This document shows positions 1 to 4,292 of a stretch of DNA of 4,292 nt, piece by piece. The position numbers and the translations under genes are program-made. The notes below the pieces were generated by a model that was not told where the DNA came from, searched no databases, and saw only the letters and a program-made list of their open reading frames with translations. Numbering within the stretch: position 1 is the first letter of the stretch; the number at the start of each line of letters is the position of its first letter. The stretch is from a virus (taxonomy: Duplodnaviria > Heunggongvirae > Uroviricota > Caudoviricetes), in the IMG/VR virus record IMGVR_UViG_3300000059_000174, positions 1 through 4,292 of that record. The stretch is one strand, 5' to 3'.

Positions 1-48
1 TGGCACAAAGCGGACAACCACGCTAGCTCTACCCTGTGCCACAAAATG

Positions 49-507
49 TCAATTTGCATCTGAACTAATGCACTTTAATCTCGTCACTTCAATAAATACC
101 GAACATCCCCCCTGATAAAACGACAATATGCGCTGCATAACTTCGCTTTTACGACACTCAGTACAAATCATATTATGACGCCTGTCGTAACGACGTATTT
201 CTCCATCAGGTAATGACCAGATAAGGTCCGGATCAACCGCAGATGGTTTCTTCAGCTTTGCCCTTGAGAGCTTTTTACGGGCATTTTGCAAGTCCTTACG
301 CGCCTGTTCAGACGGGAATAACCCGTAACCAGAGTCGTATACATCGCCACTGGCAACCAGCTCTCTGGCCAGAACGCTCATCAGATATCTTGTTGCCCCA
401 GTTTTAGCTTCCAGTTGTCGTAACGTATCGCGCCCACTCTGGCGTACGAGTTCAACAACCTGCCCTTTAATTTTTTCCCGCTCTTCTTGTGTAAAAACTT
501 TTGCCAC
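49..507 (-). CDS. hypothetical protein (152 aa), last gene of the minus-strand early/replication operon in this window
   Basis: Uninterrupted ORF starting at GTG (505-507 on the complement), preceded by a strong Shine-Dalgarno AGGAGGG 3-4 nt upstream; stop TGA at 49-51. It begins 40 bp downstream of the initiator stop on the same strand. No Walker A motif, so it is not a DnaC-type loader. It has a C-terminal His/Cys cluster (HNMICTECRK ... GGC ... KC). Family not recognised. Confidence 0.55.
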   Translation of the reverse strand: MAKVFTQEEREKIKGQVVELVRQSGRDTLRQLEAKTGATRYLMSVLARELVASGDVYDSGYGLFPSEQARKDLQNARKKLSRAKLKKPSAVDPDLIWSLPDGEIRRYDRRHNMICTECRKSEVMQRILSFYQGGCSVFIEVTRLKCISSDAN

Positions 508-547
508 AAGCCCTCCTGAAAATTACCTCATGACCAGAAATTAACAC

Positions 548-1618
548 TTACCCCCTGAAGCCCGGCGGAATTTCGTTATCCGGTTCAGAAATATGATTCA
601 CACAACGCTGGTTGTTCGTGCCGCTTACCGGGAGCAACCAGGGGTTCTCAAAATTCCGGTCCGGTCCAAAAAACGTCGTCGCTCGCTGAACAAATTCCGT
701 TCCCGTTTTCCCGGTAGCCGCCAGGTATCTTGCGTAACGCCTCACACCATCCAGCATGGCCTCTGGTGGCACCCCCTCGCGTAATCTGGCCTTCCAGGCA
801 CTGAAAGCGGATTTCTTCGGGTTTGCCCCGGCACGCAACGGGTACTCCCGCCAGACCTGTTCGAACACATCCGGATAATCCACTCGTCCCACAGACTGCC
901 CGGTGTTTTCCGGGACTACCCGATCGGCTTCCCGCTGAATGGCGGAATCGGCTTCAGGCTGCTGCAGTTGGTGTGATTGCTCCGGCCTTGCGGTCATCAC
1001 CTGCTGCACAGCGCCCGAATCGGCTTTCAGCGCATACGCTGAATCGGCTTCCGGTGTCGTGCCTGCTGGCTGACCAGGATTGACGGTCTGAACATCCCCT
1101 GCCTGGTTCGTGGCGTTTTTTACGCCATGGATCATAGTGTTTTGATCTTCTTGATCTGTATCTTTATCTGTATCTTTATCTGTCGTGACTCGTCGTGACA
1201 TGTGCGTGACATTTCGTGACGCGCCGTGACAATCGCCATTTTGTTCCCGCTTTCTTTCCCTCTCTCGCTGCGCCCTCTTGCGCTCTGCAGGAGATTTTGC
1301 GGTTTGCGAAATATTGCCGTTGTCCTCTTTAAGCACCTGGCGTTTTTCCCATCCAGTGATTAAATCACCATCAAGTACCCGCCCCTGCATCGTCTGCAAA
1401 ATTGAATCAATTACCTCTTCTGTCACGTCGAGCGCACTTGCCAAATCTTCTGTCGTGACATCAATGTGACCTCGCGTGACATTTCGTGACGCGCTCACCA
1501 GGAGGTGGATATACACTGCCATCACTGTTGCAATTGGCTGCCCTGACACCCTGGCAATTGTTCGCCACTTAGGGTCATTTGGCATGTCATGCCATAATCT
1601 GAGCCAGGCGTTAGCCAT
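548..1618 (-). CDS. phage replication initiation protein (O / phi80 gp15-like) with a DnaT-like (primosomal protein I-like) C-terminal domain
   Basis: Long ORF (track 548..1624). I place the start at the ATG on 1616-1618 because of the SD AAGAGGTGA just upstream; the GTG at 1622-1624 lies inside that SD. The N-terminus (MANAWLRLWHDMPNDPKWRTIARV...) looks like a winged-helix DNA-binding domain. The middle is a low-complexity acidic linker (DKDTDKDTD, PEADSA repeats). The C-terminus (...YPDVF...VNHISEPDNEIPPGFRG) closely matches, from memory, the C-terminus of E. coli DnaT (...VNTVSEPDSQIPPGFRG). Phased iterons lie inside the gene. It sits where ydaU/O sits in Rac-like prophages. Confidence 0.8.
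   Translation of the reverse strand: MANAWLRLWHDMPNDPKWRTIARVSGQPIATVMAVYIHLLVSASRNVTRGHIDVTTEDLASALDVTEEVIDSILQTMQGRVLDGDLITGWEKRQVLKEDNGNISQTAKSPAERKRAQRERERKREQNGDCHGASRNVTHMSRRVTTDKDTDKDTDQEDQNTMIHGVKNATNQAGDVQTVNPGQPAGTTPEADSAYALKADSGAVQQVMTARPEQSHQLQQPEADSAIQREADRVVPENTGQSVGRVDYPDVFEQVWREYPLRAGANPKKSAFSAWKARLREGVPPEAMLDGVRRYARYLAATGKTGTEFVQRATTFFGPDRNFENPWLLPVSGTNNQRCVNHISEPDNEIPPGFRG
922..1052. repeat. four dispersed copies of the 9-10-mer (G)A(A)TCGGCTT(C) within the initiator linker-coding region
   Basis: GATCGGCTTCC at 922-932, GAATCGGCTTC at 945-955, GAATCGGCTTT at 1017-1027 and GAATCGGCTTCC at 1041-1052. They encode the repeated peptide motifs PEADSA / KADSG / READR on the minus strand. 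Confidence 0.4.
1144..1230. repeat. candidate replication origin element: two GATC sites, a 12-bp tandem repeat (2.5 copies) and five CGTGAC iterons at 10-11 bp phasing
   Basis: GATC at 1144-1147 and 1153-1156. ATCTGTATCTTT at 1154-1165 and 1166-1177, with a partial copy at 1178-1183; this block is about 70% AT by hand count. CGTGAC at 1184, 1194, 1205, 1215 and 1225, spaced 10, 11, 10, 10 bp, so all on one helix face. The whole element lies inside the initiator coding sequence, as ori-lambda lies inside gene O. Confidence 0.6.
1422..1498. repeat. second iteron cluster: (C/T)GTGAC at 1454, 1465, 1475, 1485, a degenerate fifth copy near 1494, and an inverted copy GTCACG at 1422-1427
   Basis: The 20-mer CGTGACATTTCGTGACGCGC is identical at 1205-1224 and 1475-1494. 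Spacing is again 10-11 bp. It lies in the coding region for the N-terminal domain of the initiator; the protein accordingly carries ASRNVT twice. Confidence 0.55.
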
Positions 1619-1689
1619 ACTCACCTCTTCTGATACCGAATCTTTTTACTCACGAGTTGCCGGAAGCGATTCGATATGGCTATTGTCAG

Positions 1690-2115
1690 TCAATGTACTG
1701 CCACAGCATTTCCTGCCGGACCACCACGGTTCATCTGATTGAAACCGGCGATTGCCACTGCGACAAAATCATCAGCGTCTCTCACCAGTCGCTCCCGCGT
1801 CTCCACCAGCTCCCGAAAATAAGCTGAACTGTGGCTGCGCATTCTGGCCACCAGCAAAGGTGGCATTGCCTTTTCGATTGCTGGTAACAACGCCTGAATT
1901 TTTTCAACTGCATCAGGGGTGTCTTTCTCCACCCAGCGGAAAATTTTCTGAGTATTGCGAGCCAGGGCTTCCGGATGGCTGTCGTCGTACAGTTCAGGAA
2001 ACGTCATACCCAGTTCGAAATAAGCCCTGGTTATCTCGGCTGCCGGAACTTTTTCACCGTCCGGATGCGCCCAAGCATTCATCGCCATGCGGATGTGTTC
2101 ATGCTTGATTTTCAT
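1690..2115 (-). CDS. ydaT: YdaT-like protein (cII-position early regulator of Rac-type prophages)
   Basis: 141-aa ORF beginning MKIKHEHI..., which I recall as the N-terminus typical of YdaT-family proteins. Its ATG overlaps the stop of the upstream cro-like gene (ATGA, 2112-2115), implying translational coupling. SD-like GGGAG lies 7 nt upstream. Synteny is cro-like, then this gene, then the initiator. Confidence 0.7.
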   Translation of the reverse strand: MKIKHEHIRMAMNAWAHPDGEKVPAAEITRAYFELGMTFPELYDDSHPEALARNTQKIFRWVEKDTPDAVEKIQALLPAIEKAMPPLLVARMRSHSSAYFRELVETRERLVRDADDFVAVAIAGFNQMNRGGPAGNAVAVH

Positions 2116-2372
2116 GAATCAACTCCCGCCACTTGCTGTGTGTTAGCCTGAAACTCAGCAGGCAAGCCGTCGTTTGGGTTGGGATAAATATCAGGGCGAA
2201 TTTCATGCGGGGTAACTTCCCAGCTCATTAGCTGACATAACGGAATTACCTGCTTTGGGGGAACGCCAAAGCTAAGCCATTGCCAAACAGTCTGTTGAGC
2301 GACCCCCATATAACGACCTATTTCAGCTTGAGAGAATTTCTGCCTAATTTTTTCGCGAGTGCTATCTAGCAT
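2112..2372 (-). CDS. ydaS: Cro/YdaS-like HTH DNA-binding regulator
   Basis: 86-aa ORF with a strong SD GAGGAGGG 4 nt upstream of the ATG (2370-2372 on the complement). It has an HTH segment SQAEIGRYMGVAQQTVWQWLSFGVPPK and the motif HEIRPDIYP that I associate with the YdaS/Cro-like family. It is divergent from the repressor gene across a 109-bp AT-rich intergenic region. Confidence 0.75.
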   Translation of the reverse strand: MLDSTREKIRQKFSQAEIGRYMGVAQQTVWQWLSFGVPPKQVIPLCQLMSWEVTPHEIRPDIYPNPNDGLPAEFQANTQQVAGVDS

Positions 2373-2481
2373 TTTGCCCTCCTCTAAGAACTATAGGCAA
2401 AAGACTACAATAAAAAACTGTACACAATCAACAGTTTTTTATTGTGATGCTTTTAACAGTATTTCCCTGTAAAATTAAACG
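2373..2481. promoter_or_regulatory. divergent promoter/operator region between the cro-like and repressor genes, containing the palindrome AAAACTGT-N9-ACAGTTTT (2414-2438)
   Basis: The region is AT-rich. It holds a perfect inverted repeat with 10-bp arms, AAAAAACTGT (2412-2421) and ACAGTTTTTT (2431-2440), around a 9-bp spacer. There is an extra ACAGT half-site at 2456-2460. A -10-like TAAAAT at 2470-2475 lies 7 nt before the repressor ATG. Exact -35/-10 pairs cannot be assigned with confidence. Confidence 0.6.
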
Positions 2482-2883
2482 ATGATGAACGCCTTAGAAG
2501 TATCTATGTACAGAATCAGCAAGCTTCTCCAAGAAACAGGATGGAGCCAGGCTGAGCTTGCTCGTAGAATTGGTGTGACACAACAAACTGTTCAACAATG
2601 GGTCAGCGGTAAAGCTACACCTAAAGCCTCAAGTTTGGATAAACTGGTTGAGGTTACAGGGCATCCATTGCATTGGTTTTTATTGCCTCCTGAAGAAGGT
2701 GAGCAAATCTTCACCCCTGATACGATGAAAATTGGTCCTCGCCAACGCGAACTGCTCCAGGCTTTTAGTGCGTTTCCAGAAGAAGACCAAGAAAAAATGC
2801 TTCAGGAAATCAAAGACAAGAAAAAATCAATGGAAGAAACCATTGCTCGATGGTTGGCGGCGCAAAAAATCCGCCGAGCGTGA
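2482..2883 (+). CDS. paaR2: short CI-position XRE-family HTH repressor (DicA-like / PaaR2-like), first gene of the regulator-antitoxin-toxin operon
   Basis: 133-aa ORF starting with tandem ATG ATG (2482, 2485) and no recognisable SD. N-terminal HTH: WSQAELARRIGVTQQTVQQWVSGKATPK. The C-terminal region (PRQRELLQAFSAFPEEDQEKMLQEIK...) resembles my recollection of DicA-type short repressors. There is no LexA/S24-type peptidase domain. The gene symbol rests on synteny and size only, not on an alignment. Confidence 0.8.
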   Translation: MMNALEVSMYRISKLLQETGWSQAELARRIGVTQQTVQQWVSGKATPKASSLDKLVEVTGHPLHWFLLPPEEGEQIFTPDTMKIGPRQRELLQAFSAFPEEDQEKMLQEIKDKKKSMEETIARWLAAQKIRRA

Positions 2884-2908
2884 CCAGTGAACAAAGAGGA
2901 GTTATGTC

Positions 2909-3100
2909 ATGAGTACAGCCCTTTCTCCGATAGTTTCAGAATTCGAAACTACCGAACAAGAAAACAGTTACAACGAATGGTTGCGCGCTAAAGTCGCGTC
3001 AAGCCTTGCAGATCCTCGCCCCGCAATACCGCATGACGAGGTGATGGCTGAAATGGAAAATCTTATTGCTCAAATTGCTGCGACTAGCGGGAGTGTGTAA
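2909..3100 (+). CDS. paaA2: type II antitoxin of a ParE-family toxin (PaaA2-like, 63 aa)
   Basis: 63-aa ORF with SD GAGGAG (2896-2901) 7 nt upstream of the ATG at 2909. Its stop TAA (3098-3100) overlaps the toxin ATG (3100-3102) by 1 nt (TAATG). It is small, acidic and helical in character and sits immediately upstream of a ParE-like ORF. The length matches the 63-residue PaaA2 as I recall it. Confidence 0.8.
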   Translation: MSTALSPIVSEFETTEQENSYNEWLRAKVASSLADPRPAIPHDEVMAEMENLIAQIAATSGSV

Positions 3101-3387
3101 TGCTACCCATTTTATGGCTACCATCTGCTCGCGATGATTTGCGTCAGATCGTAGCCTATATTGCCAAGGAAAATGTTCCAGCAGCTCGTAGACTAAAAAT
3201 ACGTATTGAAACGTCTGTTTTAGCCCTCTCAGAGCATCCATATCTATATCCGCCAAGTGATAGAGTATCCGGTTTGCGGGAAATTGTAGCTCACCCTAAT
3301 TATATCGTTTTGTACCGTGTAGCAGCTTCAAGCATTGAAATTGTAAATATTGTGCATGCCCGCAGACAGTTTCCCTTCCCTGCCTGA
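3100..3387 (+). CDS. parE2: ParE/RelE-superfamily toxin (ParE2-like)
   Basis: 95-aa ORF with the family-typical pattern MLPILWLPSARDDLRQIVAYIAKEN ... IVLYRV ... IEIVNIVHARR. SD GGGAG lies 6 nt upstream. It is translationally coupled to the antitoxin and followed 19 nt later by an intrinsic terminator. Confidence 0.85.
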   Translation: MLPILWLPSARDDLRQIVAYIAKENVPAARRLKIRIETSVLALSEHPYLYPPSDRVSGLREIVAHPNYIVLYRVAASSIEIVNIVHARRQFPFPA

Positions 3388-3405
3388 ACCGAAAGATTTT
3401 CACAC

Positions 3406-3429
3406 TCCCTCATACGAGGGATTTTTTTT
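3406..3429 (+). terminator. rho-independent terminator closing the repressor-antitoxin-toxin operon
   Basis: Stem TCCCTC (3406-3411), loop ATAC, stem GAGGGA (3416-3421), followed directly by eight T (3422-3429). On the minus strand there is no T-run after the hairpin, so it is unidirectional. Confidence 0.7.
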
Positions 3430-3445
3430 GCCAAAAAAACAATTT

Positions 3446-3470
3446 AAAACTGTTGACACCAAACAGTTTT
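3446..3470. promoter_or_regulatory. second copy of the operator palindrome AAAACTGT-N9-ACAGTTTT with an embedded -35 hexamer TTGACA (OL/PL-like site)
   Basis: AAAACTGT at 3446-3453, 9-bp spacer, ACAGTTTT at 3463-3470. The arms and spacing are the same as the site at 2414-2438. A consensus -35 TTGACA sits at 3453-3458. The -10 is unclear (TAGTTT-like around 3477-3482). Confidence 0.55.
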
Positions 3471-3579
3471 TAATTGTAGTTTGTTTTCACAAACCACCCC
3501 GTCCCACAGAATGCAGGGCAATACTTCGAGTTACCAGGCAGTGGTCAGGGGTTAAGTAGCCAGCCCGAGGCGTAAGAAC

Positions 3580-3813
3580 ATGACGGCAGGGTTCAACTTT
3601 AATAACTATGCAGCAGGTTTTTGTTCCGCTACCCCGGCGTTAAGGGGAAATGAGGTCAGCATGGATACTATCGATCTTGGCAACAACGAATCTCTGGTGT
3701 GCGGCGAGTTCCCCAACCAGGACGGTACGTTCACCGCGATGACATATACCAAAAACAAAACGTTTAAAACCGAATCTGGCGAGCGTCGCTGGTTAACCAG
3801 AAACACTGACTGA
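3580..3813 (+). CDS. small hypothetical protein; more likely start at ATG 3661 (50 aa) than at 3580 (77 aa)
   Basis: The ORF is on the strand expected for transcription from the PL-like promoter. The internal ATG at 3661 has SD GAGGT (3652-3656) 4 nt upstream; the ATG at 3580 has only GAGG 9 nt upstream. Stop TGA at 3811-3813. No recognisable family. Confidence 0.4.
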   Translation: MTAGFNFNNYAAGFCSATPALRGNEVSMDTIDLGNNESLVCGEFPNQDGTFTAMTYTKNKTFKTESGERRWLTRNTD

Positions 3814-3824
3814 TGAGGCTGACG

Positions 3825-3983
3825 ATGGAATTTAAAGATTTACCTCCAGACACTCAGAAAATCGCCGCAGAAACACTGAAATCTCTCATTTTGGACGAGG
3901 AGACAGAAAAGGTAGAGCCAGCTAAAAAACTGGCTCAAGAAATCAGAGAAGCCTTTATTGCTCTTTATCAGTCTTCTCCATAG
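3825..3983 (+). CDS. small hypothetical protein (52 aa), not in the supplied ORF track
   Basis: ATG at 3825 with SD GAGG (3815-3818) 6 nt upstream, 12 nt after the previous stop. It translates to MEFKDLPPDTQKIAAETLKSLILDEETEKVEPAKKLAQEIREAFIALYQSSP, ending at TAG 3981-3983. The sequence is charged and helical in character. Confidence 0.4.
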   Translation: MEFKDLPPDTQKIAAETLKSLILDEETEKVEPAKKLAQEIREAFIALYQSSP

Positions 3984-4140
3984 AGGCTTTTTTTTCTTCT
4001 TCCAATATATTGCGAATTGTAATAACTGAATTGGCCGCCTCTGAAGGGGATGACATTTTGCCAGCCCGAATTAACTCAACTGTTAAGTTCAAAGCTGCAA
4101 CAGATGGATAGGTAAATGGGTTAATTAACTTGTCTGACAT
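3955..4140 (-). CDS. small hypothetical protein (61 aa from the SD-supported ATG)
   Basis: The track ORF is 3955..4152, but the ATG on 4138-4140 is preceded by a near-perfect SD GGAGGA with a 4-5 nt spacer (ATGGAGGATAAAATG), so I call the start there. The protein is MSDKLINPFTYPSVAALNLTVELIRAGK... Its 3' end overlaps the convergent 52-aa ORF by 29 bp. Confidence 0.5.
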   Translation of the reverse strand: MSDKLINPFTYPSVAALNLTVELIRAGKMSSPSEAANSVITIRNILEEEKKASMEKTDKEQ

Positions 4141-4292
4141 TTTATCCTCCATTTAGGTTCTGGGTTAGAAATGGAGACCAACACGCTGCTACGTGTGGTC
4201 GTGCGCCGGACACGGATAAGAATCCGGCACTGACAGTTTACTGAAAGGATATTTCCCTGAAAAGTCAGGGCATAACACGAAAGCGTACGGCG

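Follow-up and report, generated by a model that had tools for sequence, protein, structure and literature searches.

Our comparison of three small open reading frames (ORF1, ORF2 and ORF3) in a viral DNA record of 4,292 nt (IMGVR_UViG_3300000059_000174, positions 1 to 4,292; the whole stretch is here called the window) revealed a pair of genes, ORF2 and ORF3, that converge with overlapping 3′ ends and recur together in different prophages. The window represents the immunity region of a Qin/Rac-type lambdoid prophage from E. coli or a close relative, and the three ORFs lie between position 3580 and its right end at 4292. In the interpretation that we favour, with a probability of about 0.55, ydfA (ORF1) and a mobile ORF2/ORF3 cassette are part of a dicBF-type operon and ORF3 is a moron-type unit that would be expressed from the repressed prophage, head-on to early-left transcription.

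Specifically, the cassette would have entered between ydfA and the spacer located before dicF/dicB. ORF1 and ORF2 would be read with the operon and made only on release of the repressor, and the ORF2 product would be an acidic two-helix mini-protein whose family also appears as the N-terminal domain in longer early-left phage proteins. ORF3 would be transcribed independently from the opposite strand. It would use a promoter of its own and a structured leader of ~95 nt, the last hairpin of which would pair the Shine-Dalgarno (SD) sequence, and its transcript would stop at a terminator hairpin within the ORF2 coding sequence. Given the topology of the ‘sieB slot’ (N/sieB, ydaF/sieB), a moron-type gene expressed from the repressed prophage appears most likely, and ORF3 would thus most likely be active in that state. 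As its transcription would face dicBp, simultaneous transcription of both strands would lead to polymerase collisions and to double-stranded RNA. Such collisions might dampen leaky read-through to toxic downstream genes of the dicF/dicB type as a possible secondary role, and the ORF3 unit could itself be shut off once the operon fires. We infer that ORF3 is expressed in the lysogen and may have a role in exclusion, host benefit or interference.

Three small genes and their protein families

Four ORFs of at least 50 amino acids (aa) are present within positions 3501-4292 compared with 2.2 ± 1.3 in shuffled sequences, which is no excess beyond chance, and gene status was therefore argued from conservation. 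On this basis all three ORFs are shown to be protein-coding, and the same three coding sequences are annotated by RefSeq in the closest relative. The coordinates, SD sequences and 29-bp overlap given in a first-pass annotation of the window were all correct on re-check (Table 1), and the ORFs do lie just 3′ of a repressor-controlled early-left promoter as it described. It had treated the ORFs as genes that should be given up if they were not conserved in frame in related prophages; such conservation is present and the three ORFs are real genes. Its statement that it could place none of them in a known family holds for ORF2 and ORF3 as far as Pfam, NCBIfam and PADLOC are concerned, although both fall into PHROGs of unknown function, and does not hold for ORF1, which is a DUF1391 protein. 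The profile searches and structure predictions that it proposed placed ORF1 and gave predicted helical hairpins for the other two.

The evidence for ORF3 comes largely from a diverged copy, located beside a diverged ORF2 homologue in locus L009. Over the 52 non-overlapping codons (66% DNA identity) the differences between the window and L009 are distributed 14/5/34 over first, second and third codon positions, with a nonsynonymous proportion (pN) of 0.22, a synonymous proportion (pS) of 0.73 and an omega of 0.09, and every alternative frame contains stops. Judged by the codon-position pattern, the omega value and the stops in other frames, ORF3 thus encodes a protein that is under purifying selection. 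The first search returned only E. coli sequences of at least 89% identity plus truncated or frameshifted variants; a profile search then yielded 60-aa relatives at 57-67% identity, one of them from Enterobacter roggenkampii, as well as two tandem-duplicated forms, and a metagenome scan added a further relative at 49% identity. The family has the invariant core LxLTxELIRAGK...A..I.IR..L. The AlphaFold2 (AF2) model is a two-helix hairpin (H10-25 and H32-59) with a predicted local distance difference test score (pLDDT) of 71, and the protein is hydrophilic and without a membrane segment (maximum 19-residue Kyte-Doolittle mean 0.95, grand average of hydropathy -0.38). ORF3 matches phrog_17494 (E 1.7e-7) over residues 1-41 only, which is a weaker and partial match, and phrog_27767 also represents ORF3; the functions of both PHROGs are unknown.

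Three minor points concern the extent and relatives of ORF3. An in-frame ATG 12 nt upstream of its start (4141-4152), conserved as ATGGAGG(A/G)TAAAATG, would give a protein of 65 aa. The 61-aa start is preferred because the upstream ATG contains the SD itself. A 33-aa plus-strand ORF at 4010-4111 runs antisense to ORF3, and reading through into that frame has produced some of the ‘long ORF2’ fusion proteins in databases (e.g. P0013, 96 aa); as a gene this ORF was rejected, since relatives have stops in frame. Homology between ORF3 and the 69-aa convergent gene of O157-type prophages was suspected by eye and was also rejected, as the two have no similarity.

ORF2 belongs to phrog_9419 (E 1.5e-21, positions 1-54 of 64; function unknown) and also matches the N-termini of several longer PHROGs, its domain being shared by phrog_9419, phrog_1363, phrog_2151, phrog_6937 and phrog_33007, likewise of unknown function. 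A HMMER search of 1.84 billion representatives returned 32 clusters at E<1e-3, and the family consists of a domain of ~50 residues with the consensus MEFKDLPxDVQxIAAxTL...EPAKxLAxxIKxAFxELY. With each of the 32 matches standing for its own cluster at 50% identity, about half of them are 50-66 aa long and stand alone, and others carry unrelated C-terminal extensions. In O157-type prophages a 212-aa protein is encoded at the same place, and ORF2 shares 46% identity with its first 50 residues; the functional phage mEp460 (121 aa) and Shiga toxin (Stx) phages, e.g. PA2 gp25, encode further relatives. Compared with L009 (DNA 66% identical) ORF2 has an omega of 0.19, a variant with an in-frame deletion of four codons exists (P0010), and the AF2 model shows two helices at pLDDT 85. 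Because the clusters include stand-alone members, omega is 0.19 and the deletion variant is in frame, these comparisons indicate that ORF2 is a genuine small gene and not a truncated remnant.

Searches of Pfam, NCBIfam and PADLOC returned nothing above noise for ORF2 and ORF3, and neither protein showed any similarity to YdfB, YdfC, YdaG or SieB. Sequence-profile searches of the PDB and Foldseek searches against the PDB gave no match with E<1 for either protein; the structure search is uninformative because of the simplicity of two-helix hairpins. ORF2 and ORF3 represent genuine families of small proteins, annotated as hypothetical only, unnamed and missing from Pfam, in addition to the already known family of ORF1. 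Head-to-tail duplications of the two-helix unit are present in both families (P0048 and P0049 for ORF3, P0017 for ORF2), which hints that single units might act as dimers.

ORF1 matches PF07151 (DUF1391; E 6.2e-25; 87 bits, the cut-off being 27.3; model positions 1-47 of 48) and phrog_751 (E 5e-32), shares 86% identity with YdfA of K-12 and 82% with YdaF of Rac, and its homologue is named DUF1391 family protein in RefSeq. It is located ~180 nt 3′ of the early-left operator/promoter, which is the promoter-proximal place also occupied in Qin, Rac, mEp460 and the closest relative (L001), and has the same length as Qin ydfA and Rac ydaF with nothing of note different. By similarity and place ORF1 is YdfA/YdaF (DUF1391), which normally opens a Qin/Rac-type early-left operon, and should be named ydfA. 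A 77-aa version from the ATG at 3580 was rejected because the DUF1391 match begins at its residue 29 and the RefSeq homologue starts at the position equivalent to 3661.

The convergent pair as an exchangeable cassette

A convergent partner of the ORF2 family accompanies ORF3 in seven of the eight lineages examined (the window, L027, L028/L009, L032, L034, L035 and L043), the exception being L033 with an unrelated 85-aa gene as the partner of ORF3. The 3′ ends overlap by 29 bp in the window, by 26 bp in L009, L027, L028, L032 and L035, by 23 bp in L043 and by 4 bp in L034, and within the overlap CTCTTTATCAG is invariant across five aligned sequences from three or four lineages. The neighbourhoods of the pair differ between loci: repressors are of the helix-turn-helix (HTH) or the S24-peptidase type, and the downstream genes are either DUF1482 plus exonuclease VIII or RdgC. 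The pair directly follows the repressor gene in Enterobacter-type prophages, where ydfA is absent, and in L034 it follows a complete ydfA-ydfB-ydfC set. Homology of the window to K-12 is restricted to 3623-3792 and 4200-4292, and homology to O157-type prophages extends up to 3847 and resumes from 4130; both cassette junctions are therefore placed just inside the two start regions. Of 5426 complete E. coli genomes, 10 carry the cassette, beside different repressors, and its guanine plus cytosine (GC) content is 39-41% compared with 51% for ydfA. E. coli strains with the cassette include SC407, R1 and BCE049. Across these loci ORF2 and ORF3 are shown to form a conserved, swappable low-GC cassette, with respect to both pairing and mobility.

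The same slot is occupied elsewhere by a longer ORF2-family gene that faces an unrelated minus-strand gene. This is the case in O157-type prophages (212 aa facing 69 aa) and in mEp460 (121 aa facing 66 aa, the overlap being 32 bp), with L010 as a further case, and Stx phage PA2 has an ORF2-family gene without a convergent gene. The O157 and mEp460 pairs share with the cassette the N-terminal domain of ORF2 and a small convergent minus-strand gene between ydfA and dicB. They differ from it in that their minus-strand genes are unrelated to ORF3 and their longer ORF2 relatives carry extra C-terminal domains. This comparison of gene contents shows the region between ydfA and dicF to behave as a recombination slot, which in several prophage types presents a plus-strand ORF2-family gene facing a small gene on the opposite strand, with a topology like that of N/sieB and ydaF/sieB. 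Antisense regulation through the convergent overlap, which the first-pass annotation had raised, appears plausible given that the overlap is conserved. A conserved convergent arrangement with a terminator-like hairpin in the partner gene was not found in the literature searched.

Predicted expression signals of ORF3 and competing explanations

One predicted signal of the ORF3 unit is a terminator-like hairpin inside ORF2. The hairpin (3936-3915) and its T-rich tail TACCTTTTCT are flagged by a terminator scan on the minus strand only and have a folding z of -2.6. A hairpin 3′ of ORF3 is present in almost every lineage, in L032 in a shifted register and with T8, in L033 with a different sequence and ahead of a different partner gene, and in L043 too, and only L034 departs from this with two weaker hairpins farther from the stop. 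When only codons with a conserved residue are considered, pairwise comparison finds the same codon in 36 of 40 cases for the four stem codons, compared with 106 of 193 for the others, and this synonymous-site identity points to a constraint on the stem beyond the protein sequence. At the sequence level, the hairpin would qualify for factor-independent termination.

Upstream of ORF3, a hairpin that would pair its SD was obtained from RNAalifold as well as from single-sequence folds. The stems of this hairpin are invariant in all type-A leaders, and its loop measures 18 nt in the E. coli type and 13 nt in the Enterobacter type. Leader hairpin 1 is nearly invariant across lineages with coding DNA that is 66% identical, and the 107-nt leader has a folding z of -3.5. 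The type-A leader, SD and ATG are also used by the unrelated 69-aa gene of O157-type prophages. Two unrelated leader types precede ORF3-family genes (L004 4266-4429; the leaders of L033, L043 and L037), and the second of these, found with the ORF3 homologues of L033 and L043, also precedes the unrelated 66-aa gene of mEp460. Each leader type thus stands before unrelated cargo, so that leader and cargo recombine independently, as would be expected if the leaders were expression platforms. An attenuator-like leader model, with segment 2 pairing segment 3 to free the SD, was dropped as it fits the Enterobacter-type leaders and not the type of the window.

A candidate sigma-70 promoter, presumably used by ORF3, has its -10 element 6 nt beyond leader hairpin 1, and at the same position four Enterobacter-type lineages carry an extended -10 of the form TGnTAnnAT (TGtTAGCAT, TGaTATCAT, TGtTATTAT and TGtTAATAT). 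In K-12, no start site near the position predicted from the promoter-like segment is included among the Cappable-seq supplement entries listed. A DicA-type operator near the candidate promoter was considered and rejected; the half-site is at chance level and conservation of the segment extends over different immunity types. The spacer of 4200-4292 holds two small hairpins (4203-4230 and 4253-4272).

Several observations weigh against ORF3 as a moron-type unit of the repressed prophage. The expression of ORF2 and ORF3 is predicted from sequence, and the candidate promoter of ORF3 is weak and scores 8/12, which is under the scan threshold, with its -35 in the loop of a small hairpin. The leader shows no compensatory change in any base pair, so that its structure is supported by conservation only and could reflect a function of the plus strand. 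K-12, which has ydfC in place of ORF3, keeps hairpins 1 and 2 as well as the -10-like TAAACT, and at ~90% conservation the spacer (K-12 locus L002, 4103-4195) recurs in 4405 of 5426 complete E. coli genomes irrespective of the cassette on its left side; the leader elements could thus act on the plus strand. The hairpin in ORF2 overlaps the EPAxxLA motif of the family, and its conservation is therefore partly protein-driven. ORF3 was not detected by tblastn in 50,697 sequenced phage genomes nor in two scans of species-representative genomes, and it is decayed in some strains: P0004-P0007 are truncated or frameshifted, one of these forms being present on 19 contigs, and in E. coli STEC005 (L005 2600-2760) an in-frame deletion between two AAAATGTCA repeats has left 33 aa. 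Because of this decay and its absence from the phage and species-representative sets, ORF3 is dispensable and rare. Furthermore, ORF3 has no similarity to SieB (BLASTP against Rac SieB) or to any defence family in PADLOC.

Other explanations of the same arrangement place the function in different components. ORF2 and ORF3 might be a protein pair kept linked by the convergent overlap, in which ORF3 made in the lysogen neutralises ORF2 as an early-lytic effector or both act jointly, e.g. as a four-helix bundle. The two families do co-occur in seven of the eight ORF3 lineages at protein identities of 49-67% and in spite of different repressors and downstream genes, both proteins are predicted two-helix hairpins of similar size, and both families contain tandem-duplicated members as expected of units that normally pair. 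We nevertheless regard the protein pair as unlikely: the ORF3 of L033 has an unrelated partner, ORF2-family genes face unrelated convergent genes (O157, mEp460, L010) or none (PA2), neither protein matches any toxin, antitoxin or defence model, and STEC005 has ORF2 together with the gutted ORF3, so that ORF2 is not lethal without ORF3. A low probability was likewise given to the view that minus-strand transcription or RNA matters rather than the ORF3 protein, with double-stranded RNA formed with leaky early-left mRNA, and collision with polymerases from dicBp, guarding toxic genes of the dicF/dicB/ydfD type. This would agree with the location of the ORF3 unit head-on to dicBp and upstream of the toxic genes, with a leader (and a promoter-like region where present) that is more conserved than the cargo, which is swapped among unrelated ORFs, and with the retention of the promoter-like region and hairpins in K-12 without any ORF; RNase III is also known to process dicBF operon RNA (paper on dicBF regulation). 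However, the omega of 0.09 and the strong SD indicate that the ORF3 protein itself is selected, the terminator-like hairpin would restrict the antisense transcript to ~325 nt, and the same paper, which does not describe testing of the minus strand, reports no additional promoter inside the operon.

At the other extreme, ORF2 could be a truncated remnant of a longer early-left gene such as its 121-212-aa relatives and ORF3 a chance or decaying ORF, leaving ydfA as the only functional gene. ORF2 does correspond to no more than the first 50 aa of longer proteins, frameshifts or truncations are present in several database variants of ORF2 and ORF3, the cassette is rare and ORFs of this size arise by chance. 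This explanation is contradicted by the substitution pattern of ORF3 (omega 0.09, differences of 14/5/34) and its full-length homologues down to 49% identity, as well as by the stand-alone length of 50-66 aa in about half of the 32 ORF2 clusters and the omega of 0.19 and in-frame indel variant of ORF2, and we consider it very improbable. A more far-reaching proposal extends the moron-type reading to a ‘convergent cargo slot’ heading Qin/Rac-type early-left operons, i.e. a conserved opposite-strand platform, made up of promoter, 5′ hairpins and SD-pairing hairpin, for interchangeable small lysogen proteins; its transcription, stopped by a terminator within the ORF2-family gene, would also serve as an antisense and collision brake on leaky expression of dicF/dicB/ydfD, with ORF3 as a new exclusion or host-modulating factor that possibly acts on ORF2. 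Taken as a whole this proposal is speculative and probably goes too far.

Prophage context and related systems

Table 1. Positions of the three ORFs, of the predicted signals around them and of other features in the window.
Feature	Position	Strand	Details
ORF1, ydfA/ydaF homologue (DUF1391)	ATG 3661 to stop 3813	plus	50 aa, GAGG 5 nt upstream
ORF2, unnamed helical-hairpin family	ATG 3825 to 3983	plus	52 aa, GAGG at 3815-3818
ORF3, predicted helical hairpin	ATG 4140 to stop 3955	minus	61 aa, GGAGG 4150-4146, 5 nt before ATG
ORF2/ORF3 3′-end overlap	3955-3983	both	29 bp, both frames coding
Terminator-like hairpin of ORF3 transcript	3905-3936	minus	GAGCCAG-8 nt-CTGGCTC then TACCTTTTCT, inside ORF2 codons 31-38
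ORF3 SD and predicted pairing hairpin	4146-4176	minus	GGAGG 4150-4146; CUCCAU 4176-4171 with AUGGAG 4152-4147
Leader hairpin 2 (predicted)	4176-4200	minus	Enterobacter type: other sequence, same place
Leader hairpin 1 (predicted)	4203-4230	minus	GCCGGAU...GUCCGGC
Candidate sigma-70 promoter of ORF3	4235-4263	minus	-35 TTTTCA 4263-4258, 17-nt spacer, -10 TAAACT 4240-4235
Putative early-left (dicBp/PL-like) promoter-operator	3434-3485	plus	palindrome, -35 TTGACA at 3454-3459
Predicted plus-strand terminator upstream of operator	3406-3421 plus T-run		terminator scan
RelB/RelE pair	2909-3387	plus	RelB antitoxin 63 aa, RelE/ParE toxin 95 aa
DicA/CI-like HTH repressor gene	2482-2883	plus	
Cro/DicC-like HTH gene	2112-2372	minus	
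O-like replication gene	548-1624	minus	

The closest complete genome is that of E. coli SC407 (L001; 94% identity across 2160-4292), and relatives in IMG/VR were found at 92-97% identity only. The window stops at 4292, before the dicF/dicB region, and the downstream order is taken from relatives. In SC407 the locus reads, according to RefSeq, repressor, RelB, RelE, DUF1391, hypothetical (+), hypothetical (-), dicB, DUF1482 (ydfD-like), exonuclease VIII, xis and int, and from this gene order the window is therefore the head of a ‘dicBF’-type early-left operon. As in that type of operon, there is a divergent DicA/DicC-like HTH pair with operator palindromes at both promoters, where repressor binding is predicted. 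The second operator described in the first-pass annotation was recovered as a palindrome (3439-3485) with 77-79% similarity to the operator adjoining the repressor gene (2399-2445) and with a TTGACA; the inverted repeat consists of 3434-3454 and 3462-3482. The position of the promoter-operator equals that of the DicA-repressed dicBp of Qin, and early-left promoter activity can be presumed here. The Qin operon of K-12 has the order ydfA-ydfB-ydfC-dicF-dicB-ydfD, is DicA-repressed, and the function of its promoter-proximal genes is unknown (PMC5069750). Compared with Qin, the window prophage has RelBE between the repressor gene and the promoter, and the ORF2/ORF3 cassette replaces ydfB/ydfC.

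The dicBF operon is a model for the control of toxic genes in cryptic prophages and for host protection, and its promoter-proximal small genes are those without an assigned function. The genes of the slot provide specific candidates for new exclusion or host-modulating proteins expressed by prophages, and antisense transcription in the slot is an idea that may help to explain how dicF/dicB are silenced. The practical value lies mainly in annotation and also in guiding the choice of small prophage proteins to test.

The earlier assignment of the region to the slot of ydaF/ydaG/sieB/kil-type genes agrees with known gene orders. In Rac of K-12 the order is racR-ydaG-ydaF (DUF1391), a convergent sieB with a 4-bp overlap, kilS, kilR and recE, and in lambda sieB (34482-35036, plus) abuts N (35037-35438, minus) convergently with 0 bp overlap inside the PL operon. 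Like sieB in these two systems, ORF3 lies on the opposite strand and converges on a promoter-proximal early-left gene, with 3′ ends that meet or overlap, upstream of small RNA and cell-division-inhibitor genes. SieB, a superinfection-exclusion protein, is a membrane protein. It has 162-192 aa with hydrophobic segments, whereas ORF3 has 61 aa, is hydrophilic with two predicted helices and shares no sequence similarity with it. By position and architecture ORF3 occupies the ‘sieB slot’ without being a SieB homologue, and it is a new example of an accessory opposite-strand gene in the lambdoid early-left region with a narrow distribution. The sieB gene of P22 is expressed from the prophage (PMC10883804).

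In the concept of Juhala and Hendrix, a moron is an additional gene with a promoter and a terminator of its own and an atypical base composition that is present or absent between relatives. The ORF2/ORF3 cassette resembles morons in its presence or absence at a fixed junction, a GC content lower than that of the flanks, the terminator-like hairpin and the promoter-like -10. It differs in being a gene pair, in the location of the terminator inside the coding sequence of the partner, in the independent recombination of leader and cargo, and in that its expression is a deduction. Antisense or collision control is also the principle of lambda oop RNA/cII and of convergent-promoter interference in phage 186. 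ORF2 and ORF3 are similarly convergent with overlapping 3′ ends near a lysis-lysogeny control region; in contrast to these systems the antisense unit encodes a conserved protein, and an effect at the RNA level is a prediction here. Resemblance to toxin-antitoxin systems was not found, since ORF2 and ORF3 are convergent and not co-directional and are without Pfam or PADLOC matches, unlike type II pairs, and since both products are hydrophilic and under purifying selection as proteins, unlike type I systems.

A scan of the window against Rfam gave no matches at E<=1, and positions 3580-4292 therefore contain no known small RNA or riboswitch, DicF being located past the end of the window. In L001 (4700-5400) dicB is present and Rfam DicF is not detected even at E<=1, with a sub-threshold STnc100 match just upstream of dicB, and the DicF core TTGGCGGYATCAGTTT is present in other cassette-bearing loci (L003, L005-L007). 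SC407 and O157-type prophages likewise carry RelBE between repressor gene and early-left promoter; because RelBE lies on the repressor's strand next to the repressor gene, it is probably co-expressed with the repressor in the lysogen. The minus strand of the window also encodes a YdaT-family gene besides the Cro/DicC-like and O-like genes. Within the O-like gene, a threefold tandem repeat of TATCTTTATCTG and clusters of a CGTGAC(A) repeat are located at ~1148-1235 and ~1436-1495, and the CGTGAC(A) clusters, lying as they do inside a replication-initiator gene, look like origin iterons.

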